Below the pieces are notes generated by a model that saw nothing but the letters and a program-made list of their open reading frames with translations, searched no databases and was not told where the DNA came from. Below are positions 26,288-41,793 of a stretch of DNA of 64,000 nucleotides, piece after piece (the first letter of the stretch is position 1; every line of letters begins with the position of its first letter). The stretch is from assembly GCA_030588745.1 (NCBI GenBank), contig JAUUXB010000003.1:9358-73357 (forward strand). Direction: 5' to 3'. The translations under genes and the position numbers were made by a program. This stretch comes from a bacterium (GTDB lineage Bacteria > Patescibacteriota > Minisyncoccia > Minisyncoccales > JANBVM01).

Positions 26288-27178
26288 ATGAAATTGAAAA
26301 AAGTAGTGAAAATTGATAAAGTTAAAAATATTTATGGAAATCTATTCTTTGATGGAAAATTGGTTTTCATAAATAAGTGGGGTTGGGAAAAAGCCATAGT
26401 AACAATCACTGGCTCTTTAAATGCAAAGGGTGTGGAAACAGGAAAAAGACGGGAAGGATATGGGGGTGTCGAGATTAGAGTTTTCAAAAACTATATAGTT
26501 GCCAAAGACGATATAATCGATGGAAGCCAACTAGTAATTGGATACCAAATAGTTGGTAGAAATCAAAGAATTGAAGAAAATCAAGAAGTCCGTGGATACC
26601 AAAAAATTGAAGGAAATCAGGTTGTTGTAGTAAATCAAAGAATTGGCGACTATCAAATAGTAAATGCTGATCAAACGATAAAAGGAGATCAAGAGATTAA
26701 TCGATTACAAAGAATCACTGGAGCTCAAAAAGTTATAGGAACACAAACGATTTACGGAAATCAAATAGTAGGTCCAGGATCCCAAAAAATCCTTTCTTCT
26801 CAAACGATAAAAGGAAACCAATGGATTAAGGGAAGCCAGAAAATTTTAGGAAATCAAGATATCGAAAAGTCTCAAATAATCGATGGAGAACAAGAAATTG
26901 CTGAGACTCAAACAGTTGGAGGGTTCCAATTCATTGAAGGAAATCAGAAGATTGTCAAAGAACAAAACATTGGCACATCTCAGCTTGTTAAAGGAAATAT
27001 TAATGTTGGTCATTCTATTAACACAGGGGATATCATCATAGCTGAAAAAATCAAGTGTGGCTCAGGATATACAATTAAAGCTGGTAAAATAATCGAAGCT
27101 AACGAAATTATAGGAAAAGTAGAAAGCGGTAAAGTAAGAAGACCAAATACCAAAAAGAAAGAACTTTCCTCATTCTGA
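26288..27178 (+). CDS. Glutamine-phased hexapeptide-repeat protein (predicted beta-helix), function unknown
   Basis: 296-aa ORF with its own promoter, RBS and terminator. Residues 81 to about 237 form 26 consecutive hexads of consensus Q-x-[IV]-x-G-N. Confidence 0.7.
   Translation: MKLKKVVKIDKVKNIYGNLFFDGKLVFINKWGWEKAIVTITGSLNAKGVETGKRREGYGGVEIRVFKNYIVAKDDIIDGSQLVIGYQIVGRNQRIEENQEVRGYQKIEGNQVVVVNQRIGDYQIVNADQTIKGDQEINRLQRITGAQKVIGTQTIYGNQIVGPGSQKILSSQTIKGNQWIKGSQKILGNQDIEKSQIIDGEQEIAETQTVGGFQFIEGNQKIVKEQNIGTSQLVKGNINVGHSINTGDIIIAEKIKCGSGYTIKAGKIIEANEIIGKVESGKVRRPNTKKKELSSF
26528..26998 (+). repeat. Coding array of 26 tandem 18-nt (hexapeptide) units
   Basis: CAA/CAG recurs every 18 nt, with one 21-nt unit. 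The peptide units run QLVIGY QIVGRN QRIEEN QEVRGY QKIEGN ... QNIGTS QLVKGN. Confidence 0.85.
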
Positions 27179-27302: not shown

Positions 27303-28376
27303 CTAGAACCTAAATGGATTGCTGGCGCCTCGGACACTAAAATGAACATGGCAGCCAGTGGACATTCCAGCGCCTGGTGTTCCAGGCATGCCGCCCATCC
27401 TAGCAATTGTTTGACCCTGATAAACAGTATCTCCTGGACTGACAAGACTAGTAGCAATATGCCCATACATTGTTACAACACCATTAGGATGTAGAATTGT
27501 GATATGATTTCCTGCCCCAGCAAAAGCCCAACGAGAAGTAGATTGTGTTAAATTCACTCTTAAAACCTGTCCTCCTGCAGCAGCATAAATTGGTTCTCCA
27601 CACTTACCATGACTAAAGTCAATGGCATTATACCAGTGAATTCCTTGGGTAATTCTGCAAGGAGAAGATATAGGGCACATAAAATAGCTCTTGCTTAAAG
27701 GCACCCAAGTACGAACATATTGGGTTGTAACAGGCATTTTCCCATTAGGAATAATTAAAATATCACCAATAAGAATGTCAGCTTCAGATGATAATCCATT
27801 AAAGGAAACTATTTCTTCTGCTTTAGCTTTATATATTCCTGCAATTTCGCTGATTGTGTCTCCTGCTTTTACGTGATGAATAATACCTGTTACAGGAGGA
27901 ATAATTAGTTTCTGACCAGGCCTTATTAAAACAGTATGAATCAAATCATTGGCCCACATAAGAGTTTCTAAAGAAACATCAAAATTGCTTGCCACTGCCC
28001 ACAGAGTATCACCATCTTCAACAATATATTCAGTAATTTCTGTTCGCTGAATATCTTCAATATCCAAGCCTCCCACTAAAGCGCCCAATACCTTGGGTGT
28101 TATTACATAAGGAGGACTAATAGACCTAAAACTATTGTTGTTAATAGTAATGAATTCTGGAAGCTCTGGTTTAGATTTCTGGTTAGCTCCAAAAAATGTA
28201 TGTATAGCGCTGGCAGTTTCAGGTAGATCAGTTGGCAAAAAAACAATATTCTTACTTTTTTTAGAGGCAGTAATGAAAACCAATAGAATTAAAACAACCG
28301 CCACTACAAGCGGCTTTGAAGATTTCTTCCATCCTGCTTTCAGACATTTAAAAGTCTTGTCTACTATTTTAGACAT
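27303..28376 (-). CDS. Membrane-anchored LysM-LysM-M23 peptidoglycan endopeptidase
   Basis: TM anchor, two LysM repeats (YIVEDGDTLWAVASNFDVSLETLMWAN and HHVKAGDTISEIAGIYKAKAEEIVSFN), and an M23 core (HWYNAIDFS, GNHITILHPNGVVTMYGH, GCHVHFSV). Confidence 0.85.
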   Translation of the reverse strand: MSKIVDKTFKCLKAGWKKSSKPLVVAVVLILLVFITASKKSKNIVFLPTDLPETASAIHTFFGANQKSKPELPEFITINNNSFRSISPPYVITPKVLGALVGGLDIEDIQRTEITEYIVEDGDTLWAVASNFDVSLETLMWANDLIHTVLIRPGQKLIIPPVTGIIHHVKAGDTISEIAGIYKAKAEEIVSFNGLSSEADILIGDILIIPNGKMPVTTQYVRTWVPLSKSYFMCPISSPCRITQGIHWYNAIDFSHGKCGEPIYAAAGGQVLRVNLTQSTSRWAFAGAGNHITILHPNGVVTMYGHIATSLVSPGDTVYQGQTIARMGGMPGTPGAGMSTGCHVHFSVRGASNPFRF

Positions 28377-28472: not shown

Positions 28473-29312
28473 ATGAGTGTAAAAAATGTGGAGAATTTGT
28501 TGAAAAATTATGGAATACGACCTTCAAAAAAATTGGGGCAGAATTTTTTAGTTGATGAAAAAACTTTTGATAAAATTCTTAAAACAGCTGATTTATCAAA
28601 AAATGATATTGTCCTAGAAATTGGTCCAGGAATCGGAAATTTGACTGCAAAATTAGCTAAAAAAGCTAAAAAAGTGCTTGCAATAGAAAAAGACAAAAAA
28701 ATGTGTGAAGTTTTAAAAAAAGAGTTAAAAAAACAAAACATTGAAAATGTTCAAATAATCAACAAAGACATACTTAAAATAAATTATGATTCTATAATTA
28801 AATGGTTTAATGGTTGTGATTATGAATTGGTAGCTAATCTACCTTATTATATTACCTCAGCTGTTATTAGAAAGTTTCTTGAATTTAAAAAACCTCCAGA
28901 ATCAATGATTTTAATGATTCAAAAAGAAGTTGCTCAAAGAATATGCGCCAAACCAGGAAAAATGAGTCTTTTAGCTGTTTCAGTTCAGTTTTATGCCAAG
29001 CCAAAAATTATTTCTTATGTTTCAAAAAAATCATTCTGGCCTGAACCAAAAGTGGATTCTTCAATCATTAGAATAATTCCATTAAAAATAAAATTTTCTA
29101 AAAAATTCACTGAAAAGTTCTTTAAAATTGTTAAAGCTGGTTTTTCTCATCCAAGAAAACAGTTAATAAATAATCTGGCAAAAGAATTAAAATTAGAAAA
29201 AGAAAAAACAAGGCAGTGGCTTTTGAAAAATAAAATTCAACCAAGCCAAAGAGCTGAAACTTTAAGTGTTGACAATTGGAAAAGATTAACAAAAAGTTTT
29301 AAAATTCAATAA
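28473..29312 (+). CDS. rsmA: 16S rRNA (adenine1518/1519-N6)-dimethyltransferase RsmA/KsgA
   Basis: KKLGQNFLVD, LEIGPGIGNLT and ANLPYYITS are canonical. Confidence 0.9.
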   Translation: MSVKNVENLLKNYGIRPSKKLGQNFLVDEKTFDKILKTADLSKNDIVLEIGPGIGNLTAKLAKKAKKVLAIEKDKKMCEVLKKELKKQNIENVQIINKDILKINYDSIIKWFNGCDYELVANLPYYITSAVIRKFLEFKKPPESMILMIQKEVAQRICAKPGKMSLLAVSVQFYAKPKIISYVSKKSFWPEPKVDSSIIRIIPLKIKFSKKFTEKFFKIVKAGFSHPRKQLINNLAKELKLEKEKTRQWLLKNKIQPSQRAETLSVDNWKRLTKSFKIQ

Positions 29313-31051
29313 TGAAGAAAATTTTAAAAATTATTTTTATTTTATTTTTTTTAATTCTTTCTCCGTTTTTAGTTCAAGCTAACTGCACTAATCCTGTTTC
29401 TCCTTCTGACGGAGAAACTGATATTGATCCCTCAGAACCAGTAACTCTTGACTGGTGCGATGATGCTAATGCTAATTCTTATTATGTTAGAATTCACGAT
29501 GCTGGAAATATTATTTTTGGGAATGGAACAACAACTGATTCTAAAATCATCGTACCAGAATGGTATGGCGTTTTTACTGGAGACACAACCTACCAGTGGG
29601 AATTTGCTGCTTGCGCTAATAATGATTTTACTAAGTGCGGAACAAACTGTAATGATGATCAATTAGTTTATGATTGTGCTGATTACAACGGAAAATGGAG
29701 TTTTGCAACAAAAGAAATGTACCTTACTCCTCCAAAACTTCTTGAGCCTTTTTATGATCCAGATCAGCCAACCCAAGTTCCTGTAGTGAATTCAGATGAT
29801 GCGTTAGAATGGGAACAGACTGAAACAGAAGCTCAATGGGCTCGTTCTTTTGTTTATGAAATAAAAAAAAATGCAAACACAATAATTGGCCCAAATGCAA
29901 CCACTTCTTATGTTGTACCCTTTGGCAATGTTTGGGATTCACTTGAATTTGATATTGAACACAATTGGCATGTTAAATCTTGTTATAACAGAGACGGCAC
30001 TAATTGTTCTAATTTCAGCGAAACCTGGTTTTTCCAGACTGGTGGAGAACCTCCAAGCAGTCTAACTGCTGATGCTGATATAATCCCAGTTGAACTTGAT
30101 TGGGATGATGTTATTAAAGCGATGTCTTACGTACATGAAGTTTCTAAAAATAATTCCTTTAGTGAGACAGATATTGTTGTCAGAGATAGTACAGTTGATT
30201 CAGAAGCCAGCGCAGACTATTATCCTGGCGAAGGTTATCCTGGCTTGGTTCAAGATACACAATATTGGTGGCGCGTAAAAACTTGTGTTGACGAGCAAAG
30301 TGATTATTGCGGGGATTGGAGCAACATTCAAACTTTTAGAACTTTTCGTCTCAGTGCTCCTTGTGTTTTTGACGGCATACTTGATGAAAACTGTCCTTCT
30401 CCTAACAATAACGGTGCTTTTTATACTTATCAGAAAAATATTTCCTGGCAGTCGGTTGAAGGAGCCAAGGCTTATAAGTATAAGATTGATTATGCTTCAA
30501 AAGACCCAGAAGAAGCTGATGAAAGTTGTGTAGCTGGTCAACCAGTGCCGATTGAAAAAGATATTGTTTTCAATAATTCTGCTCGTGTATTCTTAAGTTG
30601 TTTAGGAACATATAATTGGTGGCTTAGATCTTGTCTTGATAGAAATTGCACTGAAATAAGTATTCTAACCCCTGTATTAAGTTTTACTCTTACTCAACCT
30701 GTTCCTCCAGCTCAATTTGGTCTTGTTCCTTGTGGTAGAATTTCGGATAGTCCTGATACTCAATGGAATGAAAGAGACGATTGTGAAATAAGACATATCT
30801 TTTTGTTATTAAAAAATATTATTGACCTTATATTGTGGAGAATTGGATTGGTCGCTTTGGCAGTTTTAATAATATTTACTGCAGTGGTCTCATATTTTTC
30901 ATTAGGAACGCCAGGCACTATTGTTAATGTAAAGCAAATCTGGCAAAGAGCTGGAAAAGGATACTTAATAATGTTTTTAGCTTGGTGGATTATAAATATG
31001 ATTGTAAAAATTATAGGGTTTACAGACACTTGGTGGTCACTTCCTTTTTAA
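29312..31051 (+). CDS. Secreted cysteine-rich four-module (FN3-like) protein with a C-terminal T4SS-pilin-like two-helix hairpin
   Basis: Signal peptide, then four modules each ending in an aromatic-x-W-x-hydrophobic-(K/R/A)-x-C motif (YQWEFAAC, HNWHVKSC, YWWRVKTC, YNWWLRSC). The C-terminus has two TM helices around GTPGTIVNVKQIWQRAGKG. The start overlaps the rsmA stop (TAATG). Confidence 0.6.
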   Translation: MKKILKIIFILFFLILSPFLVQANCTNPVSPSDGETDIDPSEPVTLDWCDDANANSYYVRIHDAGNIIFGNGTTTDSKIIVPEWYGVFTGDTTYQWEFAACANNDFTKCGTNCNDDQLVYDCADYNGKWSFATKEMYLTPPKLLEPFYDPDQPTQVPVVNSDDALEWEQTETEAQWARSFVYEIKKNANTIIGPNATTSYVVPFGNVWDSLEFDIEHNWHVKSCYNRDGTNCSNFSETWFFQTGGEPPSSLTADADIIPVELDWDDVIKAMSYVHEVSKNNSFSETDIVVRDSTVDSEASADYYPGEGYPGLVQDTQYWWRVKTCVDEQSDYCGDWSNIQTFRTFRLSAPCVFDGILDENCPSPNNNGAFYTYQKNISWQSVEGAKAYKYKIDYASKDPEEADESCVAGQPVPIEKDIVFNNSARVFLSCLGTYNWWLRSCLDRNCTEISILTPVLSFTLTQPVPPAQFGLVPCGRISDSPDTQWNERDDCEIRHIFLLLKNIIDLILWRIGLVALAVLIIFTAVVSYFSLGTPGTIVNVKQIWQRAGKGYLIMFLAWWIINMIVKIIGFTDTWWSLPF

Positions 31052-31078
31052 AATTTATGGTATAATAAAAAAATTAAT

Positions 31079-34000
31079 ATGATTAAATTACCTAAATTAT
31101 TTTCTAATTTTGAAAAACGTTTTGGTTCTGTTCTTTTATATAATAAGAAAATTTTAATCCTTGGAATAAGTCTGGGTTTGTTTTTGTGTTTTTTCAGCAT
31201 TCAAACTGCTAATGCATATATACCAATAGTCAGTGAGATAAAAGATCTTATTAACTATGTTCTTTCTCTTCCTGTCCGGATTCCTTTTCTTATCTTAGTT
31301 ATTACTATAGGAGTTATAGGATTTGTATGTTCGGTTGTTTTTACATTAGTTGCCTCCCTATTAAGTTGGTTAATAGAAGCATCTTTATCAATCCAGGTAG
31401 TTCCAGGGGAGGGTGCATTTGACGTAGTTAATGTAGGGTTTGAATTCACTAAGAATTTTGCCAATATGTTTATCATTTTGATATTGGCTATTATTGGATT
31501 AGCAACTATTCTTAAGATTAGAGAGTATGAAGCACGAAAGCTCTTGCCTAAGCTCCTTATGGTTGCCCTTTTAATTAATTTTACGCCAGTTATTGTGGGG
31601 TTCATTGTTGATATTGCAAATCTTTTCACTAATTTTTTCTTTACAGAAATAATAAAAAGTGGTGCTCTTACCAGTATTAACCTCGACGATGTTTTTAATA
31701 TAATAAACGAAATAGGAACAGTAATGGATTTCAAGCTTAAGGTTTATAAGGAGAACGTTATTATTGAGACTTTAATCCCTATTATCGTTAAGGGGATTAT
31801 GATGATCCTTTTTTACAGCATTGCTACTATTGTTTATCTTTTAGTTTTCCTTTTATTTTTCGTTCGGTTTATAATGCTTTGGATTCTGGTAATTTTAGCG
31901 CCAATTGCTTTCTTTTCTCAAATCCTACCAGCATCTCCAACAGTTAAAGCACTTCTTCCTAACATACTACATTGGGATAAATGGTGGGAAACACTTATCC
32001 AGTGGGCAGTTATAGGCATACCTCTTGGTTTCTTCCTTTATCTCTCTGCTTTCATTATAACTACACTGGAAAATGGCAAAATGCCACAGGGTGTCATAAT
32101 GAGCACTGACGCTATTGGCTCTTTTAGTAATATTATAGGAGTTATCTTAGGACCTATGATTGCAATATTTATATTAATTATGGGAATAATGATTTCTATT
32201 GAGTCTGTTCCAGGAGTTGCCAAAGGAATAATAAAAAGAGCAAAAGGATTTGGAAAAGGAGTAGGAAAAAGAGCTACAGGAGTAGTGGGACAAGCAGCAA
32301 AACGCGTGACTGGAGTTGTAGCGGGGGGAATAGGTGGAACAATATCGCGCGTTCCGGGACTGAAAAAATTCTCCCCAGGCCTTCTTGGGTATAAGGAGAA
32401 AACTAGGCAAGATTGGGCAAAACAAAGAACAGCAACCCCAGAAGGATTTAAAGACTGGGATACAAAAACCCAAGTATCCTGGACAAAAGCAAAAGGAAAG
32501 AGGGGAAGTATGGGAGCCATTAAGGCTTTAGGGGCAGAAAAGGCTTCAAAAATGATGGAAGAAAACCCAGACCTCAAAGATAAATTTGTATCGGGCGCCA
32601 AATCACTGGCTGGAAGAACAAGTTATAGAGATGAGGTCAAGATGATAACGGACATCGCTCCAGAGGAATTCAGTGGAATAGAAATTGCTAAGGCACAGGG
32701 TTATAAAGAAAAAGATATAGATGACCAAGTGGAAAAAATGGAGAAAGATGGTATGTTTGAAAAATTTGGAACTGAAACAGATGATAAAAAAGAGTTCGCA
32801 ACTAAAGTATTACATATGGAAAAGGTGAAATTAGAAGAAACATCTAAAAATGCGTTAATTTCTGATGCGGGAAAGGCAGCTAGCGTGTATAGAAATGACC
32901 CTCAATTCTTTGTAAAGGCTTATGAAAAATTAGGTAAAGATAAGTTCAATAAGCTAGTAAAAGGAGGAATAAACGCCTTTGATGATGATAGCCTTTATAG
33001 AATAAGTCCCCGCTTAGTGAGAGCTTCCTATTACAATAGGCATTTCAAGGAAGTGACGGGTAGAGAACTTGGCAAGAAGGAATTTAAAGCTTTCAAAGAA
33101 AAAATGAAAAAAGAACCAGAAGTTGAAAAAGAAATTTCATTGGAAGAATTAAAGGAAAAACCAAAATCCCCGGAAAGGATGGTACAAAAGGAACTTAAAA
33201 AAACACCTGAAGATTATGGAGTATTGTCTAGAAAACATAAGCAAGACATAAAAACTCTTGAGAGAGAAGAAAAGGAGATAAAGGAATTAAAGAAAAGAAT
33301 AGATTCTCTTATGAGTCGACTAAGTCAAGGAAAGGTGCCTAAATATTTCAGACCTACTGCAGGAAAGGAAATTAACAAGAAAGGGGCAGAATTAGAGATA
33401 AAAGAAAAGAAATTTAATGAATTGAAAAAAACTGTAAAAGAATACAAAGAAAATTTTGAAAAAGCTAGAAAAGATATGGCAGAAAAAATAAAAGAAAAAA
33501 TGGAAATACAAGCAGGAATAGAAACACAAGCAGGATTGAGAGAAGATTATTCTATGCCTAAAATAAAGAAAGAATTCTTAACAGATCCCAAGATTAAGAC
33601 TTTAAAAACGAATGTAGAAAATGTTATTTCAGCACTTGATAAATATGAAAAAGAATCTGAGCCGATAAATAAATTAATAAAAGAGGCAGACTTTCATGAA
33701 GCAATGAAATCAAGCCGGTCTACAAATTTCGAAATAGATGTGATAGAAGGCGTGAAAGAGAGAAACGTAAAAAAGTTGAACAAATTATTGGGCACACAGG
33801 CGGAAAACTTAAAAGAAATAAAGGGGGTCGAAAAAGTAAAAGAGTTACAAGCCAATATAGATTCAAGTAGAGAACAGCTTAGAGATCTTAAAACTAAAAT
33901 TAAAGCCCAAATAGGCAAAATAAGATTAAAAAAAGAAATATCAGAACTAAGAGAAGAATTAGAAGAAAAACCCTCTCCGTTTCCGAAGGAAAAAAGGAAA

Positions 34001-34165
34001 GAAAGAAGGGAAAGAAGGAAGGATTTAAAGCGTGAATCTCTAGAGAAAGTGAGAAGAGATGTCGAAAGATATAAAAAAGCAAAAGAAGTAGAAGAAAAAA
34101 TGAAAAAAGATATAAAAGAAGCAGAGGAAATAGCGGAAAAACAAAGAAAGAAATTACAAGAATAA
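31079..34165 (+). CDS. Polytopic VirB6/TrbL-like membrane protein with a Gly-rich segment and a roughly 600-aa Lys/Glu-rich coiled-coil tail
   Basis: The first 390 aa or so contain many hydrophobic helices. Then comes GVAKGIIKRAKGFGKGVGKRATGVVGQAAKRVTGVVAGG, then a long charged helical region. It lies inside the VirB4/PrgI/pilin cluster. Confidence 0.5.
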   Translation: MIKLPKLFSNFEKRFGSVLLYNKKILILGISLGLFLCFFSIQTANAYIPIVSEIKDLINYVLSLPVRIPFLILVITIGVIGFVCSVVFTLVASLLSWLIEASLSIQVVPGEGAFDVVNVGFEFTKNFANMFIILILAIIGLATILKIREYEARKLLPKLLMVALLINFTPVIVGFIVDIANLFTNFFFTEIIKSGALTSINLDDVFNIINEIGTVMDFKLKVYKENVIIETLIPIIVKGIMMILFYSIATIVYLLVFLLFFVRFIMLWILVILAPIAFFSQILPASPTVKALLPNILHWDKWWETLIQWAVIGIPLGFFLYLSAFIITTLENGKMPQGVIMSTDAIGSFSNIIGVILGPMIAIFILIMGIMISIESVPGVAKGIIKRAKGFGKGVGKRATGVVGQAAKRVTGVVAGGIGGTISRVPGLKKFSPGLLGYKEKTRQDWAKQRTATPEGFKDWDTKTQVSWTKAKGKRGSMGAIKALGAEKASKMMEENPDLKDKFVSGAKSLAGRTSYRDEVKMITDIAPEEFSGIEIAKAQGYKEKDIDDQVEKMEKDGMFEKFGTETDDKKEFATKVLHMEKVKLEETSKNALISDAGKAASVYRNDPQFFVKAYEKLGKDKFNKLVKGGINAFDDDSLYRISPRLVRASYYNRHFKEVTGRELGKKEFKAFKEKMKKEPEVEKEISLEELKEKPKSPERMVQKELKKTPEDYGVLSRKHKQDIKTLEREEKEIKELKKRIDSLMSRLSQGKVPKYFRPTAGKEINKKGAELEIKEKKFNELKKTVKEYKENFEKARKDMAEKIKEKMEIQAGIETQAGLREDYSMPKIKKEFLTDPKIKTLKTNVENVISALDKYEKESEPINKLIKEADFHEAMKSSRSTNFEIDVIEGVKERNVKKLNKLLGTQAENLKEIKGVEKVKELQANIDSSREQLRDLKTKIKAQIGKIRLKKEISELREELEEKPSPFPKEKRKERRERRKDLKRESLEKVRRDVERYKKAKEVEEKMKKDIKEAEEIAEKQRKKLQE

Positions 34166-34288
34166 AAGAGAGGCTCTAAATAAGAATCTTATTTATTCAA
34201 AAAATTTATAATATATCTATCCTAATAAATTAAAAAAGACAAAAAAAATAGGGATTATAAAAATATAATGCCCTGGGCAAAACCCTTT

Positions 34289-34696
34289 TTAGAATCTTAA
34301 AAATGCCGGAATTTTAGAAAGACTCTTTAGTTCACCCTTTAAATCTTTGTCTTTAGGATATTTTTTCTTCTGCTCCAAAAGGACTAATTTTGCTTCTTTA
34401 AAAGATTTTTTCAGCGGCACCAACTGTTTCTTGCACTTATCTATATCTGCTTTTTTTCCAGCAGACTCGGCGTCCCATAGTTTTATCTGTGCTTTGAATA
34501 ACTTATCACTTTTTTCAATAACTGCCTGACATAACTTTATATGTTTCTCAGCGAAATATATAATCTTATTTGTTCTTTCTATTTCATTCAAGCTTTCTAC
34601 ATTCTTGTCAGCAACTTCTGCTTCCTTTAGGATTTCTTTCTTTTTTGATTGAACTTTTTTCAATAAATCTTCTCTTTTTTCTGTCATTTCAAACAC
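34289..34696 (-). CDS. Small Lys-rich helical protein, unknown function
   Basis: 135-aa ORF driven by a perfect consensus promoter (see 34732-34760). Confidence 0.5.
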   Translation of the reverse strand: MFEMTEKREDLLKKVQSKKKEILKEAEVADKNVESLNEIERTNKIIYFAEKHIKLCQAVIEKSDKLFKAQIKLWDAESAGKKADIDKCKKQLVPLKKSFKEAKLVLLEQKKKYPKDKDLKGELKSLSKIPAFLRF

Positions 34697-34731
34697 ATTT
34701 TCAATTTAATGTACTATATATTATTACCTAT

Positions 34732-34760
34732 ATTATATACCCTATCTTCAATCTTGTCAA
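34732..34760 (-). promoter_or_regulatory. Consensus sigma70 promoter for 34289-34696
   Basis: The minus strand reads TTGACA, 17 nt, TATAAT. Confidence 0.6.
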
Positions 34761-34764
34761 GGAC

Positions 34765-34794
34765 TTGACATAGTCTTTAGTAAAATATTATTAT
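34765..34794 (+). promoter_or_regulatory. Sigma70 promoter for 34844-35152, back to back with the minus-strand promoter
   Basis: TTGACA, 18 nt, TATTAT. The two -35 boxes form the inverted repeat TTGTCAAGGACTTGACA. A GGAGG site sits 8 nt before the ATG at 34844. Confidence 0.5.
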
Positions 34795-34843
34795 AAAGTA
34801 AAGATCGTTTAAATAAACACATATAAAAAATGGAGGACTCTTT

Positions 34844-35152
34844 ATGGATAGAAAAGAAAAAAAGGGAAAAAGAAAAGAAACGAAGAAACAAAAATGTAAA
34901 TTAATAATTGAAAAAGCAGACCTTCTTGTAGAGGTGGGTAACAAGGCTCTAGTATGTAATAAAGAAAAAGAAGAATTAGAAAGAATATTAAACGAAAATA
35001 GTGTTAATAAAAGCAATAGGAATAAAATCGATATACTTCCCTTAAAAGTAGAAGTGAGAAAATTAGACAGACGAAGCGTAAAATTAAGAAACTTCTATCT
35101 TGAAGCAAAGAAATCTTTGGAAATAGAACTCGGCAGACCTCTACTCCATTAA
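34844..35152 (+). CDS. Small Lys-rich protein, unknown function
   Basis: 102-aa ORF with a GGAGG ribosome-binding site, a promoter and a downstream terminator. Confidence 0.5.
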   Translation: MDRKEKKGKRKETKKQKCKLIIEKADLLVEVGNKALVCNKEKEELERILNENSVNKSNRNKIDILPLKVEVRKLDRRSVKLRNFYLEAKKSLEIELGRPLLH

Positions 35153-35167
35153 ATCCCATCTTTTCAA

Positions 35168-35195
35168 AAAGGCATCTATGCCTTTCTTTTTTTTA
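35168..35195 (+). terminator. Intrinsic terminator
   Basis: AAAGGCAT-ct-ATGCCTTT followed by CTTTTTTTT. Confidence 0.55.
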
Positions 35196-35241
35196 TTTAA
35201 TGAATAAATCCAAATGAAAAAAAGAGGGAAATCTCTCTGTT

Positions 35242-35784
35242 TTAAAAAATAACAGTACCAGCAAGTATTTCACCTCTTATTCTATTTGCTTTTATAGTTT
35301 GTTTTGAAAAATCTCCTTTACTCTTTTCGCCAGCAGATATCTCTTGAGTTTTAATATATTTCCCTGCCCAAATAGATTGTCCGGATTCAATCTTTTTTTC
35401 ACACGTAATCCAACTGTAAGCTATAATCGGCCCATCTGCTACTATATATCCAACGGCCGTAATACTGCCCTTTCTAGCTATAATGAATCCTCCGGTTTTA
35501 ATCCAAACGCCTGAATAAACAGACCATCCAGCTATAATAGAACCACTAACTATAATAGAGCCTTCGGCAATAATAAACTGCCGAGATTTAAGCAAGCCAT
35601 TAACAATAATTGATTCGTAAGACCGAATATTTACGGCTATCAGGGGGCCTTTTGATTTAATCTCATCTGCTTCTACATTTCCGTGTACAACACATCCTTT
35701 TTTATTTGAAAAAATTATTTTAGTACCTTTATGATACAGATTCCTATTACACTCTTTTTCTTTAATCTTTATTTCTTTTATAAT
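35242..35784 (-). CDS. Hexapeptide-repeat (beta-helix-like) protein, paralog of 26288-27178, with no canonical start codon
   Basis: The frame is open from the in-frame TGA at 35790-35788 down to 35242. Its N-terminus, IKEIKIKEKECNRNLYHKGTKIIFSNKKG, aligns with KVVKIDKVKNIYGNLFFDGKLVFINKWG of the paralog. The body has six-residue periodicity (FIIAEG SIIVSG SIIAGW ...). The only start candidates near the homologous N-terminus are ATT at 35784 or ATA at 35781, after AAGAGGA. The track calls only the TTG at 35595. Confidence 0.5.
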   Translation of the reverse strand: MIKEIKIKEKECNRNLYHKGTKIIFSNKKGCVVHGNVEADEIKSKGPLIAVNIRSYESIIVNGLLKSRQFIIAEGSIIVSGSIIAGWSVYSGVWIKTGGFIIARKGSITAVGYIVADGPIIAYSWITCEKKIESGQSIWAGKYIKTQEISAGEKSKGDFSKQTIKANRIRGEILAGTVIF

Positions 35785-36020
35785 ACCTCATCCTCTTATA
35801 ATTTTAATATTCTGTTTATATTAAACCAATTATATTTAAAATTGTCAAACAAATTTAAATCGTTCAGTTAAATTGAACTATAATACTTTTAAAAAATAAT
35901 CAATTTCTCAAACTCCAGAGGTACAACAAGTGCCTCTTTTTTATCTCTCATTTCTTTTAATTGATTGTTAAATGATATAAAATGATATAAAATTTAAATA
36001 GGATAAATAATAAAAAATAC

Positions 36021-36443
36021 ATGGCAGAAAAAATTTCTTCTGAACAATATTGGAAATTGTATAAAGGACTTCCCCAACCTCTGCAGGAAGCCCTGTCTTC
36101 AGACGAAACAGCAAATAATATACAAGATATCTGTGAAAAACATGAGATCACAGAGCATGCTTCTGATATTGTGGATCAAATAAGCCGGGTTTTATTGGGA
36201 GTCCTGCCGCCTGATGAATTTCAGGGAGTATTAGAAAAGGAAATAGGGTTGGAGAAAGAAGTGGCTAAAAAAGTGGCTCAGGAAATTAACCGATTTATCT
36301 TTTATCCTGTTAAGAGCAGTTTAGAAGAGCTTTATAGTATGGAGATTACTCCTCCAGCACAAATGAAAATACCAGGACCAGCAACAGAGAAAAAACCAAC
36401 TGCGCCTAAAAGAAAAGATGTTTACAGAGAATCTGTACAATAG
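36021..36443 (+). CDS. Hypothetical soluble helical protein, first gene of the VirB4 sub-operon
   Basis: 140-aa ORF ending directly before the PrgI-like gene. No motif was recognised. Confidence 0.5.
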   Translation: MAEKISSEQYWKLYKGLPQPLQEALSSDETANNIQDICEKHEITEHASDIVDQISRVLLGVLPPDEFQGVLEKEIGLEKEVAKKVAQEINRFIFYPVKSSLEELYSMEITPPAQMKIPGPATEKKPTAPKRKDVYRESVQ

Positions 36444-36445
36444 AC

Positions 36446-36850
36446 ATGCGATTCACTGTCCCCCAATTTATTGAGCATGAGGCAAAAATAGTAGGGCCTT
36501 TAACTTTCAAGCAGTTCATATATGTTGGCATTGGAGCAGCAATCTGTTTTATGCTTTATTTTAGTGTTCCTTTTTCAGTGTTTGTTTTGGCTTGTGTTTT
36601 TATAGGCGGAGCAGCAATAGCTCTGGCTTTTTTAAAAATTGGGGGAAGGTCACTTCCTGGTGTTATTGGAAATTTTTTAAAATTTAAACTTTCACCTAAA
36701 ATGTATCTCTGGAAGAAGAAACAAGGAACAATATCAATACTTAAAAAAGCAGAAAAAAAAGAAGTTGAGAAAGAAGAAACTCCTTTAAAGATTGCTAAAA
36801 AAAGCAAGCTTAAAAGCATTCAAACTGAAATAGAAACAAAAACAAGGTAA
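36446..36850 (+). CDS. PrgI-family (VirB3-like) small membrane protein
   Basis: MRFTVPQFIEHEAKIVGPLTFKQFIYVG followed by two TM helices. This matches the PrgI-family N-terminal pattern as I remember it. Confidence 0.55.
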   Translation: MRFTVPQFIEHEAKIVGPLTFKQFIYVGIGAAICFMLYFSVPFSVFVLACVFIGGAAIALAFLKIGGRSLPGVIGNFLKFKLSPKMYLWKKKQGTISILKKAEKKEVEKEETPLKIAKKSKLKSIQTEIETKTR

Positions 36851-36851
36851 C

Positions 36852-37484
36852 ATGGCACAAACAGCAACACAACAAATCATTGAAATAGATCAGATTAAAG
36901 AAGGGGTGGTTGTTTTAAAAAACAAGGCTTTAAGAGGAGTATTAATGGTCTCCTCGATTAATTTTGCTTTAAAGTCAGAAGACGAGCAAAATGCTATTAT
37001 TTTTCAATTTCAGAACTTTTTAAATTCTTTGGATTTTTCTATTGAAATAGTTATGCAGTCAAAAAAACTAAACATCACAGGATATTTAGAAAAACTAAAA
37101 GAATTAGAAGCAAAGGAAAGAAATGAACTTTTAAAACTCCAGATTGCTGAATATCAGAAATTCATAAGAGAATTGATTAGAGGCGGAGCAATTATGTCAA
37201 AGCAGTTTTTCGTAATAGTGCCTTTCAGCCTTATTGAACTTCATAAATTAACTGCTGAAGAGACAAAACAAAAGACCGCATCTTTAACAGAAGAAAGGTT
37301 TCAAAGAGCAAAAACCCAGCTTTGGCAGAGAATGGAATTCGCTGCTTTAGGATTAAGAAGGTGCGGGCTTCAATCTATTCCTTTAAACACTACTGAATTA
37401 ATTGAGCTTTTCTGGAGCTTATACCATCCAGAAGAAGCTGAAGTTGGTTATTACCCGGAAATACCGCCGGAACTAACCACCTAA
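36852..37484 (+). CDS. T4SS-associated soluble protein resembling the N-terminal region of Gram-positive VirB4-type ATPases
   Basis: IIEIDQIKEGVVVLKNKALRGVLMVSSINFALKSEDEQNAIIFQFQNFLNSL has the style of N-terminal segments of TcpF/Orf16-like ATPases. It is tightly packed between the PrgI-like gene and virB4. Confidence 0.45.
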   Translation: MAQTATQQIIEIDQIKEGVVVLKNKALRGVLMVSSINFALKSEDEQNAIIFQFQNFLNSLDFSIEIVMQSKKLNITGYLEKLKELEAKERNELLKLQIAEYQKFIRELIRGGAIMSKQFFVIVPFSLIELHKLTAEETKQKTASLTEERFQRAKTQLWQRMEFAALGLRRCGLQSIPLNTTELIELFWSLYHPEEAEVGYYPEIPPELTT

Positions 37485-37495
37485 TACCCTACATT

Positions 37496-39277
37496 ATGAA
37501 ATTACCATTTTTAAAAAAGAAAAAAGATGAGATGTCAGCGCAGATTTTTGAATCTCCAACAATAAATATCAAAGACATAATTGCGCCTTCTTCACTTGCT
37601 ACAACCTCAGATTATATAAAACTGGGCAGAAAGTTAGTCAAGTCCTTTTTTATTTTCTCTTATCCAAGATATTTAAGCACAGGCTGGTTTTCCCCAATTA
37701 TTAATATGGACACTCCTATGGACATTGCTATTCACGTCCATCCTGTTGACACTGGAATGGTTTTAAAACAACTAAGGAAGAAAGTTACAGAAGTAGCAGC
37801 TGAACTTGCTGAAAGATCAGAAAAAGGCTTAATTAGAGATCCAACGCTAGAGATTGCTTATCAGGACTTGGAAGGATTAAGAGATAAGCTGCAAACTGCT
37901 CAGGAAAGAATGTTTAGATTCGGTATTTATTTAACAGTGTATGGAGACACTGTTCAGCAATTAAGAGACGTTGAAACTAACTTAAGGTCAATTTTAGAAT
38001 CAAGATTAATTTATGTTAAACCTTCTCTTTATCAACAAAGAGAAGGATTCAACACTACTGCTCCTTATGGACTAGACCAGCTCCAGGTTCACACCTCTAT
38101 GAATACTGGCCCTTTATCTTCAATCTTTCCTTTCGTTTCTTTTGATCTAAGCTCAAATGACGGAATACTTTATGGAATAAACAGACACAATAATTCTTTA
38201 ATTTTGTTTGACAGGTTTAGTCTAGAAAATGCCAACGAAGTTTTATTCGGAAAATCAGGAAGCGGAAAAAGTTATTTTGCGAAAGTGGAAATCTTAAGGT
38301 CTTTAATGACAGGAATTGAAGTTATGATTTTAGATCCTGAAAATGAGTACAAATATTTAGCTGATTCAGTAGGTGGTTCTTTCTTTAATATTTCTTTGGG
38401 TTCACCAAACCACATCAATCCATTTGATTTGCCTGTTCCAAGAGAGGGAGAAAAACCAGAAGACGTTCTGCGCTCAAATGTTATTAATTTAGTTGGGCTT
38501 TTAAGAATTATGCTGAAAGGATTAACTCCTGAAGAAGATGCAATAATTGACCAGGCATTAACTGAAACTTATGCTGCAAAAGACATTACGCCTGAGAGTG
38601 ATTCATCTACCTGGCAAGAAAGAATTCCTCTAATGCAGGATTTTGAAGATGTTTTAAAACAAATGGAGGGAGCAGAATCATTGGTTAGAAGGGTTAGAAA
38701 ATTCACAAAAGGAACGTTTGCCCAATTCTTTAACCAGTCAACAAACATTTCAATGGATAAACCTCTCGTGGTTTTTGGAATAAGAGACATGGAGGATGAA
38801 CTGCGACCAATAGCATTATTTATTATTATGAGATATATCTGGAACAAAGTAAGAACTGAATTGAAAAAAAGGATTTTATTAGTTGATGAGGCATGGTGGA
38901 TAATGCAAAACGAAGATGGCGCATCATTTCTTTATGGAATTTGTAAACGAGGCAGGAAATACTGGCTGGGAGTAACTACAATAACACAGGATGTTAATGA
39001 TTTTATGAAATCTTCCTATGGACAGCCAATTATTACAAATTCATCCTTACAGGTTATAATGAAACAATCGTCAGCAACAATTGACGTAATGCAGAAAATA
39101 TTTAATCTAACAGAAGGAGAAAAATATCTGCTTTTAGAAGCAGAGGTTGGCGAAGGAATATTTTTTGCCGGCCAAAAACATGTTGCTATAAAATCAGTTG
39201 CCTCATACACTGAAGACCAGATTATTACTACTAGTCCTGAAGAAATAGCTAAAATAAAAGAAATTAAAAAGGAATAG
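37496..39277 (+). CDS. virB4: VirB4/TrsE-type type IV secretion ATPase
   Basis: N-terminal IAPSS...YIKLGRKLVKSFFIFSYPRYLSTGWFSPIINMD, Walker A GKSGSGKSYF and Walker B RILLVDEAWW. 593 aa, as in monoderm-type VirB4 homologs. Confidence 0.85.
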   Translation: MKLPFLKKKKDEMSAQIFESPTINIKDIIAPSSLATTSDYIKLGRKLVKSFFIFSYPRYLSTGWFSPIINMDTPMDIAIHVHPVDTGMVLKQLRKKVTEVAAELAERSEKGLIRDPTLEIAYQDLEGLRDKLQTAQERMFRFGIYLTVYGDTVQQLRDVETNLRSILESRLIYVKPSLYQQREGFNTTAPYGLDQLQVHTSMNTGPLSSIFPFVSFDLSSNDGILYGINRHNNSLILFDRFSLENANEVLFGKSGSGKSYFAKVEILRSLMTGIEVMILDPENEYKYLADSVGGSFFNISLGSPNHINPFDLPVPREGEKPEDVLRSNVINLVGLLRIMLKGLTPEEDAIIDQALTETYAAKDITPESDSSTWQERIPLMQDFEDVLKQMEGAESLVRRVRKFTKGTFAQFFNQSTNISMDKPLVVFGIRDMEDELRPIALFIIMRYIWNKVRTELKKRILLVDEAWWIMQNEDGASFLYGICKRGRKYWLGVTTITQDVNDFMKSSYGQPIITNSSLQVIMKQSSATIDVMQKIFNLTEGEKYLLLEAEVGEGIFFAGQKHVAIKSVASYTEDQIITTSPEEIAKIKEIKKE

Positions 39278-39282
39278 CTATT

Positions 39283-39660
39283 ATGGAGGAATCAACTGAA
39301 CAAACTCAAAGTCCCGGGAAAACAAGCTTGTTTAGCCCAGAAGCAATCGTAATGATGACTATAGGAATAACACTTGATTTTCTTAGTATAATTTGTGCTA
39401 TCTTAATTTTAGCTTTTGGAATAGGTCTCATTCTTTCTAAAATCGTTTATGCTATTGGTTTTATAATTGTTATTGCTTGGTCAATGTTCCGAGGTGGAGG
39501 CATCCAACAAGGCAAAGGAAAAATTAAAAAACAAATGTCAAAAGGAATAGATGATTTTTTAAAAAAATATAAAAAAAACTTAGTTGTAAAACTAATTCCT
39601 GCTATTGGAGACGTTCTTCCACTTTGGACATTTACTATTTACACTGAGCTTAAAAGTTAA
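39283..39660 (+). CDS. Small multi-pass membrane protein, unknown function
   Basis: 125-aa ORF with 2-3 hydrophobic helices, located in the T4SS-like operon. Confidence 0.5.
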   Translation: MEESTEQTQSPGKTSLFSPEAIVMMTIGITLDFLSIICAILILAFGIGLILSKIVYAIGFIIVIAWSMFRGGGIQQGKGKIKKQMSKGIDDFLKKYKKNLVVKLIPAIGDVLPLWTFTIYTELKS

Positions 39661-39675
39661 GTATAATGAAATAAG

Positions 39676-40074
39676 ATGTCTATTTTGAAAAATAAAACCA
39701 TATTAACTATTATTTTAGTTTCAGCATTACTACTACCAAATGTTTGTTTTGCTGATTTAAGGCTGAATTTAGAATACCCAGAGTTTGGTGGATATAAATT
39801 GGAAGAAGACACGAACATAAATGAAATAATTGCCTGGTTATATTATTTTATTATTAGCATTTCTGGAATTTCTGCTTTTGCTATGTTAGTGAAAGGAGGC
39901 TTTATGTGGTTAAGCTCAGCTGGAAACCCAAGTGCTCTTGGGGAAGCTAAAGATATAATTACTTCTGCTATTTTAGGCCTTATACTTATACTGGCCTCAT
40001 TTCTCATTTTACAAGTAATAAATCCAGAGCTAACCACTCTTAAGATAGAAGAACTGCAATCTCTTAAAAATTAA
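39676..40074 (+). CDS. T4SS pilin-like protein (VirB2/TrbC-like)
   Basis: Signal peptide, then two TM helices around GGFMWLSSAGNPSALGEAKDIITSA. Size (132 aa) and topology fit VirB2-type pilins. Confidence 0.6.
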   Translation: MSILKNKTILTIILVSALLLPNVCFADLRLNLEYPEFGGYKLEEDTNINEIIAWLYYFIISISGISAFAMLVKGGFMWLSSAGNPSALGEAKDIITSAILGLILILASFLILQVINPELTTLKIEELQSLKN

Positions 40075-40091
40075 TTTGGAGTTGAAAAAAA

Positions 40092-40119
40092 AGAACGTTT
40101 TTGAAAACGTTCTTTTTTC
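40092..40119. terminator. Bidirectional intrinsic terminator between the T4SS-like operon and jag
   Basis: AAAAAAAAGAACGTTTT-tg-AAAACGTTCTTTTTT, with A and T runs on both sides. Confidence 0.7.
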
Positions 40120-40154
40120 AAGTAAATACTGTATTACTAAATACTATATACTAG

Positions 40155-40616
40155 TCATGGATAAGGTCGTACAATAATCTTACGTTCTGGTTCCCTGCCT
40201 ATGCTATCAGTACTTATATCTCTTCTATCTGCTAACTCTACATGAATTATCCTTCTTTCATAAGCTGGCATTGAAGGAAGTATTTTTTCTTCCTTCATTA
40301 AGGCAACATCATCAGCAACTGATTTTGCCAGTTCTTTTAAATATTCAATCTTTTTCTTTTTGTAACCATTTATGTCTAAATCAATGTAGAATTCCTGGTC
40401 AATTTGTTTTCTTAAAATTGCTTTTAATAATCTTTGAATTTCGCCCAATGTTTGGCCTCTTTCACCAATTAGAATCTTAGGTTCATCGGTTTTTAAATTA
40501 ATAGGAATAATCAAGTCTTTTTGAGAAAGAAACTCAATTTCTACATTAAAACTGGTTTTTTGAAAAAACTCATTGGTAATTTGTTTAATTGTTTCTAAAT
40601 TAGCTTGACTCAACAT
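40155..40616 (-). CDS. jag: Jag/KhpB-like RNA-binding protein (KH + R3H)
   Basis: IGERGQTLGEIQRLLKAIL (KH-like) and ERRIIHVELADRRDISTDSIGREPERKIIV (R3H). I prefer the ATG at 40616, because the longer ORF in the track overlaps yidC. Confidence 0.8.
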   Translation of the reverse strand: MLSQANLETIKQITNEFFQKTSFNVEIEFLSQKDLIIPINLKTDEPKILIGERGQTLGEIQRLLKAILRKQIDQEFYIDLDINGYKKKKIEYLKELAKSVADDVALMKEEKILPSMPAYERRIIHVELADRRDISTDSIGREPERKIIVRPYP

Positions 40617-41313
40617 GATTCTTATTAATATTATATTGCTGAAATATTGAGAACAAAGAAGTAACAATCCAGTAAAGAGCAATAGCTGCTGGCAAACGAA
40701 GAAGGATTATAACGGTAAAAAACGGCAGGAAATAAAGCATTTGTTTTTGCATTATATTTGCAATCTGGTTTTTCTGTTCTTTTTTTTGTCTTGGATTCAA
40801 TGTTTTTGCCTGAATAAGCTGAACTGTGCCTGCTAATATTGCTAAAAACATACTGGCCTGGGAAAGATTCATAATTCCCAAAAAACTAGGGTTTATTTGC
40901 CCCAAAGCAGGCATAAAACTATATAAACTATTCATTGCTTCTGGCTTAAGCCCTTTCCAGAAAACCTGATAGAGAGCAATTAAAAGAGGTAATTGAATGA
41001 GCAAAGGTAAAAAACCACTGATTGGATTTACCTTTGCTTCCCTGTAAAGTTTTAATAATTCTTCGGTTTGTTTTTGCTGGTCGTTTTTAAACTTTTTCTG
41101 AATTTCTTTTATTTTTGGTTGAAGCTCTCTAAAAACTTTTTGTGATTTTAATGACTGGCTCATTAAAGGATGAAGTGCTAACCTAATTAGAATTGTTAAA
41201 ACAATTACAGCCACACCAAAATCATTACCAGGCAACCAGTGGTAAAGAAAAGCTAGCGCATTAAATAATGGCTGGTAAAGTACTGTATTGAAAATTTCAA
41301 GCAATATATTCAT
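40600..41313 (-). CDS. yidC: Membrane protein insertase YidC (short, monoderm-type)
   Basis: 237 aa with the conserved 5-TM core, FGVAVIVLTILIRLALHPL and PLLIQLPLLIALY. Located in the rnpA-yidC-jag context. Confidence 0.88.
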   Translation of the reverse strand: MNILLEIFNTVLYQPLFNALAFLYHWLPGNDFGVAVIVLTILIRLALHPLMSQSLKSQKVFRELQPKIKEIQKKFKNDQQKQTEELLKLYREAKVNPISGFLPLLIQLPLLIALYQVFWKGLKPEAMNSLYSFMPALGQINPSFLGIMNLSQASMFLAILAGTVQLIQAKTLNPRQKKEQKNQIANIMQKQMLYFLPFFTVIILLRLPAAIALYWIVTSLFSIFQQYNINKNHVESS

Positions 41314-41315
41314 AT

Positions 41316-41654
41316 TTATAAAATTCCTACTTTTTTAAATAATTTTTCTACTAATTTTTTAGTTTCTTCAAAATCTTTTGTGTCTGAACCAGGCAAAGCA
41401 ATCAACACAACATCAAATCCTTTTTTTATATCTTTAATTCTTGCCCTTATTATTTCCCGTAATCTTCTTTTAACTTTATTGCGTACAACAGCTTTTTTTG
41501 AAACCTTTAAGGAAACAATAAAACCTAAACGAGAGTTTTCCAATCCATTTCTATTAAGTTTCAATGCTATAAAACCTTGTTTTACGCCTTTGCCTAATTT
41601 AAAAACCTTTTCAAAATCCTTTTTCTTTTTTAAGCGGTTTAACTTAGGCAACAT
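41316..41654 (-). CDS. rnpA: Ribonuclease P protein component
   Basis: 112-aa basic protein, RLGFIVSLKVSKKAVVRNKVKRRLRE (RNR-like motif), directly downstream of rpmH. Confidence 0.85.
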   Translation of the reverse strand: MLPKLNRLKKKKDFEKVFKLGKGVKQGFIALKLNRNGLENSRLGFIVSLKVSKKAVVRNKVKRRLREIIRARIKDIKKGFDVVLIALPGSDTKDFEETKKLVEKLFKKVGIL

Positions 41655-41658
41655 CAGT

Positions 41659-41793
41659 CTAAACAGTAAGTTTTTTACGACCCTTTTTCCTTCTTCTTTT
41701 CAAAATCTTTTTACCTGCCTTGGTTCTGTTTCTTTTTAAAAATCCGTGTTTTCTTTTTCTTTTTCTTTTTTTTGGCTTATAAGTAATTGACAT
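41659..41793 (-). CDS. rpmH: 50S ribosomal protein L34
   Basis: Not in the ORF track because it is under 60 aa. The minus strand encodes [44 protein letters not shown], which is canonical L34. Confidence 0.9.

Follow-up and report, generated by a model that had tools for sequence, protein, structure and literature searches.

A chromosomal type IV secretion-like cluster without a relaxase next to dnaA in a Patescibacteria genome

Gene content and order of the cluster

We analyzed a gene cluster resembling a type IV secretion system (T4SS) that adjoins dnaA in a 64,000-nucleotide stretch of a Patescibacteria contig, called the window throughout. The Patescibacteria are ultra-small bacteria with an attached life on other microbes, and they may account for a quarter of all bacterial diversity. 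The cluster encodes a VirB4 ATPase with a separate TrsD protein, a PrgI/VirB3-like protein, a probable VirB6-like membrane protein and VirB2-like pilins, and every open reading frame (ORF) named in an earlier, sequence-only reading of this DNA is present where that reading placed it. The features are listed below with strand and, in brackets, the basis of each assignment (aa, amino acids; TM, transmembrane; HMM, hidden Markov model).

27303..28376, minus: cell-wall hydrolase (LysM x2 plus peptidase M23), divergent from rsmA; candidate VirB1 analogue (Pfam)
28473..29312, plus: rsmA/ksgA, 16S rRNA methyltransferase, heading the first operon (stop/start overlap TAATG)
29312..31051, plus: 579-aa secreted protein carrying a VirB2-like pilin hairpin at its C-terminus, behind a signal peptide and four FN3 domains (AlphaFold (AF2), Foldseek, hhalign)
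31079..34165, plus: probable extended VirB6/TrbL-like polytopic membrane protein, 1028 aa (homologue and fold matches)
34166..36020, no strand: 1.86-kb insert with three small ORFs, 34289-34696 (minus, coiled-coil), 34844-35152 (plus, basic) and 35242-35595 (minus) (no homologue in 80 related loci)
36021..36443, plus: p140, soluble accessory protein just upstream of PrgI (conserved family, alignment A3)
36446..36850, plus: PrgI/VirB3-like two-TM protein (PF12666)
36852..37484, plus: TrsD, predicted free-standing VirB4 N-terminal domain, 210 aa (matches to VirB4 models and NF041427)
37496..39277, plus: VirB4 ATPase, C-terminal three-quarters including the P-loop domain (NF045971, P-loop_TraG)
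39283..39660, plus: p125, small membrane protein after VirB4 (iterated HMM, alignment A4)
39676..40074, plus: short VirB2/TrbC-like pilin, 132 aa, signal peptide plus helical hairpin (PF18895)

The rsmA stop codon overlaps the start of the 579-aa gene (TAATG, sequence 29308-29314), which bears out the translational coupling proposed earlier, and the genes from p140 through the short pilin are separated by gaps of 1-15 nt. The proposal of a single plus-strand block does not hold, since two of the three small ORFs in the 34166-36020 insert lie on the minus strand; the insert splits the cluster into two transcription units.

A scan with one genome per species found 304 relatives of the window VirB4, of which the best 80 were fetched (L001-L080). 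All 80 loci come from Patescibacteria metagenome-assembled genomes (MAGs), recorded as Nealsonbacteria, Wildermuthbacteria, Paceibacterota, Parcubacteria and, in several mislabelled cases, 'Saccharibacteria'. The records of many of the closest relatives are titled 'uncultured Candidatus Saccharibacteria bacterium'; these titles probably stem from one label applied wholesale when MAGs were deposited in bulk, as synteny and VirB4 identity place the relatives with Nealsonbacteria/Paceibacteria. Among the relatives are contigs of ~0.64-0.69 Mb that look like whole genomes, in agreement with the reduced genome suggested by the sequence-only reading. Profile matches were judged by NCBIfam cut-offs and Pfam gathering scores (GA).

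Across the relatives, the conserved order runs hydrolase (minus), rsmA, pilin-domain protein, VirB6-like protein, a variable slot, p140, PrgI, TrsD and VirB4, followed by a p125-like protein, one or more pilins, jag (minus), yidC (minus), rnpA (minus), dnaA, dnaN, PBP1 (minus) and tyrS. In the window itself, jag-yidC-rnpA-dnaA-dnaN was confirmed, with rpmH at 41659-41793 (minus), so that the cluster does abut the jag-yidC-rnpA-rpmH/dnaA genes as first read.

The ATPase motor

The ORF at 37496-39277 matches the NCBIfam model NF045971 ('VirB4-like conjugal transfer ATPase, CD1110 family') with 371.4 bits, above the cut-off of 325 (E 8.7e-111), and Pfam P-loop_TraG with E 3.6e-28. Its 593 aa cover positions 172-735 of the NF045971 model, and its translation contains a Walker A motif (GKSGSGKS) and a Walker B motif (LLVDEAWW), confirming the monoderm-type VirB4 proposed for this position. 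VirB4 identity is 67-91% across the fetched loci, and the best plasmid matches are monoderm (Streptomyces, Bacillales and Clostridia, 30-34% identity). The earlier reading had named a HerA/FtsK-type ATPase as the outcome that would overturn it; in the profile search, VirB4 scores above its cut-off, while the match to DUF87, the HerA central domain (2.8e-8), is a local one of just 63 residues at the P-loop (residues 251-313).

The 210-aa product of the preceding gene matches two VirB4 models, CD1110 at positions 1-171 (3.1e-7) and Mbov_0397 at positions 103-234 (1.8e-9), as well as the TrsD/TraD model NF041427 (8.2e-7), each under its curated cut-off. On the CD1110 model, its match and that of VirB4 are complementary and without overlap (1-171 and 172-735). 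By these profile matches the protein is TrsD, the detached N-terminal domain of a split VirB4. TrsD is a separate ORF in 80/80 related loci, indicating that the split is a real architecture and not a frameshift.

PrgI and the VirB6-like membrane protein

The PrgI gene lies two ORFs upstream of virB4, and its product matches PF12666 with 36.4 bits (GA 27), consistent with the PrgI/VirB3-like identity read from its sequence; it is present in 73 of the 80 loci. The 1028-aa protein consists of a ~420-aa helical membrane domain and a ~600-aa charged coiled-coil tail. Direct scans of the whole protein and of its N-terminal 474 aa returned no Pfam match. A match to PF19590 TrbL_3 is precomputed in the protein database, and 6 of 50 homologues match Pfam TrbL (PF04610), the best with 7.8e-7. 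An AF2 model of the first 460 residues (predicted local distance difference test score, pLDDT, 81) has the R388 TrwI/VirB6 chains 8rtd_L, 8rt9_F and 7o3v_F/G as its top Protein Data Bank (PDB) matches in Foldseek, and these are weak (prob 0.75-0.89, E 0.08-1.1, TM-score 0.32-0.47 on the target). The family profile against PDB sequences gave coiled-coil noise from the tail alone. The precomputed, homologue and fold matches thus speak for the earlier VirB6/TrbL-like assignment, for which there is no direct Pfam match; from sequence and model we regard the protein as a probable 'extended VirB6'.

Pilins and pilin fusions

Two proteins had been proposed to end in VirB2/TrbC-like hairpins, and both proposals stand. 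The short pilin matches PF18895 T4SS_pilin with 34.3 bits (GA 26.6) and the Mbov_0395 pilin-like family NF045849 with 1.2e-5. For the 579-aa protein, the excised C-terminus reaches only E 0.054 against PF18895, whereas a profile of its orthologues' C-termini aligns to the short-pilin profile with 96% probability in hhalign (E 3.5e-9). In the AF2 model (pLDDT 87), a signal helix is followed by four beta-sandwich domains and, at residues 493-567, by a hairpin of two helices (493-529 and 534-567). By Foldseek, the beta-sandwich domains are tandem FN3 (LAR FN3 1-4, 6tpw, E 1.3e-14), and a 52%-identical homologue is named 'pilin' by NCBI.

Two further paralogous genes with FN3 and a C-terminal pilin hairpin lie 22 kb from the cluster:

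6437-7114, plus: FN3-pilin (fn3 6e-9; T4SS_pilin 28.7 bits, GA 26.6)
7179-7868, plus: FN3-pilin (fn3 5.5e-6; T4SS_pilin 26.8 bits, same GA)

They likely encode extra pilus or adhesin subunits away from virB4. A gene for a PKD-domain surface protein (5372-6433, plus) precedes the pair.

Using a census of pilin-domain ORFs in the window and the 80 loci (naive stop-to-stop ORFs with the first start codon), we found that 105 of 121 are fusions to extra domains and 16 are short classical pilins. In 80 of the fused ORFs, the hairpin comes right after the signal peptide and is followed by a long C-terminal extension; in 19, among them all three window fusions, an N-terminal ectodomain precedes a C-terminal hairpin, and the other 6 are arranged differently. 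The domain positions rule out a C-terminal hairpin as the rule for all long pilin-like ORFs, given the 80 with the hairpin near the N-terminus. In published structures of VirB2-type pili, both hairpin termini face outward; fused domains on either side of the hairpin would therefore be displayed outside the filament.

The wall hydrolase

The ORF at 27303-28376 was correctly read as a LysM-M23 hydrolase (Pfam LysM 2.5e-23, Peptidase_M23 5.6e-19), and a gene at this position was found in 28 related loci. The slot keeps two LysM domains, while the catalytic domain is M23 (window, L001) or, in five relatives, CHAP (L011:3698-4726, L012:3339-4370, L018:4033-4995, L029:2581-3558 and L061:5128-6219). 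CHAP is the catalytic domain of PrgK, the pCF10 T4SS hydrolase, and the relatives' CHAP domains are homologous to it. The PrgK-type domain in the slot of these five relatives lends sequence support to the earlier VirB1 suggestion for the LysM-M23 hydrolase, and the enzyme is a candidate VirB1 analogue. Between dksA and the hydrolase gene lies an ORF for a 296-aa protein (26288-27178, plus) with degenerate short repeats, beta-solenoid-like and with weak hexapeptide-transferase matches alone; it is 79% identical in L001 and absent from the other loci.

p140, p125 and the variable slot

Two small conserved proteins accompany the motor. p140, found in 67/80 loci and always just upstream of PrgI, has a ~105-aa helical domain, a variable disordered linker and an invariant C-terminal D-x-Y-R-E-(P)-x-E motif, without a TM segment; by its sequence, the DxYRE end looks like a docking peptide. 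p125, recovered by an iterated HMM in 44/80 loci and nearly always directly 3' of virB4, ends in the motif GE(L/I)IPFxGxxPFWT. Neither family matched any family in Pfam or the PDB. We also compared profiles of the pilin, p125, p140, the VirB6-like protein and the 579-aa C-terminus by hhalign with single pCF10 proteins (PrgC, D, E, F, G, H, I, J, L, M and PcfA), and none exceeded 2% probability; p140 and p125 could therefore not be equated with PrgF, PrgG or PrgL.

A variable slot separates the VirB6-like gene from p140. In the window it holds the 34166-36020 insert, to which none of the 80 related loci gave a homologue. The ORFs 34289-34696 (minus) and 34844-35152 (plus) are served by two near-consensus promoters set back to back at 34732-34794 (12/12 and 11/12 consensus matches), and terminator-like hairpins lie at 35168-35185 and 35917-35937. 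An open frame at 35245-35787 (minus) resembles a FapA-like beta-solenoid fragment, exceeds any start-codon ORF there and may be a pseudogene. An Rfam scan of the whole window found three tRNAs alone, with no RNA element in the 1.86-kb gap. The insert is genome-specific and probably not part of the machine. Other relatives hold short coiled-coil ORFs in the slot, and at least 15 related loci hold a minus-strand gene for a 330-420-aa SPFH/Band_7 (stomatin/flotillin-like) protein (L020, L022, L028, L029, L030, L033, L035, L037, L039, L040, L042, L046 and others); L022 also carries an rve-family transposase in this slot. The SPFH protein may be a membrane-scaffold partner, or the slot may be a permissive insertion site.

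Mobility genes and inheritance of the cluster

Family scans of the window ORFs of at least 150 aa found no relaxase, VirD4/TcpA/FtsK-type coupling protein, integrase or VirB11-sized ATPase, and the 40 remaining ORFs of this size are housekeeping, type IV pilus or unassigned genes. A repeat search of the window found no flanking direct repeats beyond AT-rich chance matches. The absences noted by the sequence-only reading are thereby confirmed. That reading had also allowed that mobility genes just outside might make the cluster an ordinary integrative conjugative element (ICE); ~18 kb of the same 127,745-bp contig, from JGI sample 3300022538, beyond the window (8 kb upstream and 10 kb downstream, ~82 kb in total) contains fatty-acid synthesis genes upstream and housekeeping genes downstream, and no relaxase, type IV coupling protein (T4CP) or integrase. 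In tblastn against the window plus 83 loci (84 sequences, 1.45 Mb), pCF10 PcfC (coupling protein), pCF10 PcfG (relaxase) and Tn916 Int gave 0 matches; the pCF10 VirB4, PrgJ, matched 81/84 sequences. The nearest tRNA is 9 kb from the cluster, both sides of which are housekeeping genes, and we found no compositional island there: window GC is ~32% throughout, and that of the cluster equals that of its flanks.

The setting is conserved as well. Among 54 loci with at least 9 kb downstream of virB4, jag (minus)-yidC-dnaA follows in 47, at a median distance of 668 bp, and among 47 with at least 9 kb upstream, rsmA (plus) precedes in 32. Median identity to the window is 71.6% for VirB4 vs 66.4% for DnaA. 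Identity correlates with that of DnaA for TrsD (Spearman 0.76), PrgI (0.71) and VirB4 (0.58), and not for the VirB6-like protein (0.13) or the pilin (-0.05). In the closest relative (VirB4 91%, DnaA 86%), the VirB6-like and pilin-domain proteins are ~31-38% identical to those of the window. Thus, the cytoplasmic motor is vertically inherited and strongly constrained, and the surface-exposed parts are hypervariable or replaced, which largely rules out an ordinary ICE.

Because gene order is conserved in the 80 relatives and VirB4 is more conserved than DnaA, the evidence supports a vertically inherited core chromosomal apparatus, related to MPF-FATA conjugation machines, and not a mobile element. 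The earlier proposal of a core chromosomal apparatus is borne out by synteny in dozens of species-level relatives and by a cytoplasmic core that diverges in step with DnaA.

The cluster adjoins the dnaA gene, and the genes left of dnaA are oriented towards it. We found no change in GC-skew sign at dnaA (window positions 40000-44000). Sequences within 1 mismatch of a DnaA box number 25 vs 18 expected; they form no cluster, and neither the rpmH-dnaA spacer nor the dnaA-dnaN spacer contains one. A replication origin (oriC) at dnaA is thus unsupported; oriC may lie elsewhere, or skew and box rules may differ in this lineage. Proximity to oriC, and with it the dosage argument of PMC12102498, finds no backing in the window.

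Other features of the window

A complete type IV pilus cluster at 11309-19897 (plus) encodes a PilB-like T2SSE ATPase with MshEN, PilC/T2SSF, several pseudopilins with N-methylation motifs and PilM, so that type IV pilus and T4SS filament systems lie within 40 kb. The ORFs 18771-19325 and 19322-19897 were read as PilN/PilO by eye only, having no Pfam match. A second T2SSE ATPase (442 aa) is encoded at 52085-53413 (minus).

A run of lipid-synthesis genes spans L081/L082 positions 800-9900 (the contig just upstream of the window) and window positions 691-3441. It includes genes for BioY, a short-chain dehydrogenase (FabG-like), a FabA-domain protein, an NMO protein (FabK-like), two acyltransferases, biotin carboxylase, BCCP, BirA, carboxyltransferase and PlsY. 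To our knowledge, Patescibacteria are generally described as lacking fatty-acid synthesis, which makes this run notable.

Discussion

The cluster is very probably a Patescibacteria-clade T4SS with a non-conjugative role in host contact. Such systems have been described before. A survey of 3,035 Patescibacteria genomes found VirB4 in 2,417 and relaxases in just 103 (Quinonero-Coronel et al. 2025, PMC12102498). It placed a Patescibacteria-only VirB4 clade within the monoderm MPF-FATA class, with TrsD (the commonest component), PrgI/VirB3, VirB6 and VirB2-like pilins near virB4, and with VirB8 rare outside the class ABY1. The same survey reported dnaA, dnaN, rnpA, rpmH and ksgA beside virB4 in Paceibacteria and Microgenomatia, and proposed LysM/M23-containing hydrolases as VirB1 candidates. 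In Southlakia epibionticum, transposon sequencing showed that epibiotic growth requires a T4SS together with its pilin array, and that cluster (SEML1_0006-0019) has no recognizable coupling protein or relaxase (Wang et al. 2023, PMC10633639). A 2025 review describes these as the first T4SSs essential for their bearer and as alone among monoderm systems in having pilins (PMC12857230). The relaxase-free chromosomal T4SS, its missing relaxase and its location at dnaA are therefore already known (PMC12102498, PMC10633639). We found no discussion of the pilin fusions, p140, p125, the exchange of M23 for CHAP in the hydrolase or the SPFH/insertion slot in these papers, and these are incremental additions, as is the hypervariability of the surface parts.

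We envisage that PrgI and VirB6 would keep a VirB4 hexamer at the membrane, where it would extract pilin hairpins and stack them into a pilus or stalk, which would cross the wall through a hole cut by the LysM hydrolase. Pilin proteins with FN3 or other ectodomains would be built into this structure or cap it and would attach to the host cell, and the hypervariable surface parts would set host specificity. As for what is transported, import of host DNA or other macromolecules is, tentatively, the single most likely option, because the parts mirror the ComB and Ced importers and because S. epibionticum can dispense with comEC but not with the T4SS (PMC10633639, PMC12857230). A step other than import, export or display is improbable.

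Several points weigh against a host-contact T4SS. Neither the transported substrate nor the mechanism is evident from the sequence, as the sequence-only reading had already concluded. The pilus itself is inferred from pilin homology only, and the VirB6 assignment leans on weak structural matches (Foldseek E 0.08-1.1) and transitive ones. No ORF in 26-41 kb matches the VirB8 or PrgL families. Adhesion and DNA uptake could be covered by the complete type IV pilus system that the window encodes as well. Finally, a T4CP is possibly encoded elsewhere in the genome; T4CP-like genes lie far from virB4 in most Patescibacteria (PMC12102498).

Two alternatives accept the T4SS and give it another task. 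If the apparatus exported effectors, in the manner of effector-translocating T4SSs, the proteins that it injects would serve to subvert or lyse the host bacterium; this has been speculated for Saccharibacteria (PMC11665869, PMC10633639). Exporters without a T4CP exist (Bordetella Ptl and Brucella VirB; PMC12102498), and the hypervariable surface components would fit an arms race with the host. However, family scans of the cluster and its neighbours turned up neither a coupling protein nor a chaperone nor a candidate effector. Ptl-type exporters, moreover, depend on a periplasm, which monoderms lack, and we consider export unlikely. An equally unlikely alternative is that nothing is transported and that a VirB4-driven filament simply presents FN3 and other ectodomains on pilin hairpins. 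The predominance of fusions (105/121 pilin-domain ORFs) and the 4xFN3-plus-hairpin layout of the 579-aa protein fit this, as do the lack of a T4CP in the window, flanks and 1.45 Mb of loci and the Agrobacterium T-pilus, whose formation requires VirB4 and not VirD4. Against it, the separate type IV pilus system at 11.3-19.9 kb already gives adhesion, PrgI and the extended VirB6-like protein are retained, as they are in systems that translocate, and both filament systems are essential in S. epibionticum (PMC12857230), arguing for non-redundant roles. A broader form of this idea, in which the VirB2-type hairpin is mainly a polymerizable anchor for large, fast-evolving ectodomains and the system is above all a modular filament, driven by VirB4, that displays adhesins and determines host range, strikes us as rather doubtful; were it true, p140 and p125 would be lineage-specific assembly factors, the SPFH protein would be a membrane scaffold, and the filament would be a new functional variant of T4SS pili.

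The remaining alternatives deny a core T4SS altogether. An ordinary ICE or its remnant, with relaxase, coupling protein and integrase outside the window, might be suspected from a VirB4 family defined on conjugative elements and from the minority of Patescibacteria genomes that carry relaxases (PMC12102498). It is made very improbable by the same flanking housekeeping genes in dozens of species, by the absence of GC deviation and flanking repeats, by the housekeeping content of the ~18 kb beyond the window, and by the 0 tblastn matches for PcfC, PcfG and Tn916 Int in 1.45 Mb vs 81 for PrgJ, together with a VirB4 more conserved than DnaA. A HerA/FtsK-type ATPase among unrelated membrane proteins could account for the DUF87 match on residues 251-313 and for weak CedB and CedD matches, yet the full-length VirB4 match to the CD1110 equivalog exceeds its curated cut-off, the neighbouring PrgI and T4SS_pilin matches exceed their gathering scores, and TrsD matches VirB4 N-termini, so that this explanation is hardly credible.

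The Patescibacteria T4SS is essential in the sole species tested, and a 2024 perspective calls its role 'completely unknown', with effector delivery or nucleotide/DNA uptake as the speculations (PMC11665869). As a host-contact T4SS, the present locus is a compact and clean case within the Nealsonbacteria group; it confirms the published pattern and alone opens no new question. It separates the parts under diversifying pressure from those under purifying pressure, and it gives a minimal parts list for structural and genetic work, namely two unnamed conserved proteins, the pilin fusions and a swappable hydrolase domain.

Comparison with known systems

The archaeal Ced system (CedA/A1/A2/B) and Helicobacter ComB share with the cluster a minimal set of a VirB4-like ATPase, a VirB6-like polytopic protein and VirB2-like pilins, without a relaxase or T4CP. 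The window VirB4 does not belong to the Ced families (CedB NF041017 51.8 bits, cut-off 700; CedD 23.5, cut-off 600), and ComB is a diderm system with VirB7-10; the likeness of both to the cluster is one of parts list alone. Both are a precedent for inward transport, whereas no Patescibacteria T4SS is known to import DNA. R388 TrwI/VirB6 (7o3v, 8rt9, 8rtd), a helical bundle of similar size, is the best, albeit weak, structural match to the membrane domain of the 1028-aa protein, which is ~4x longer than TrwI and has a 600-aa coiled-coil tail.

With the monoderm MPF-FATA systems (pCF10 Prg/Pcf, pGO1/pSK41 Trs, CTn2 CD1110), the cluster shares a CD1110-family VirB4, PrgI upstream of VirB4 and the absence of an outer-membrane core; the TrsD-type split is shared with pGO1, and the CHAP hydrolase of relatives is as in PrgK. 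Unlike them, it lacks a T4CP (PcfC), a relaxase (PcfG), a PrgB-type LPXTG adhesin and a recognizable VirB8-like PrgL, and it has VirB2-like pilins, which are lacking in Gram-positive systems, and is chromosomal and vertically inherited.

The Patescibacteria-clade T4SS shares VirB4, TrsD, PrgI/VirB3 and VirB2-like pilins with the cluster, and probably VirB6, and is likewise chromosomal and without a relaxase. S. epibionticum has a six-gene pilin array, whereas the window has one short pilin and three FN3-pilins and no array. The cluster differs from the clade's T4SS in nothing of kind, only in local details.

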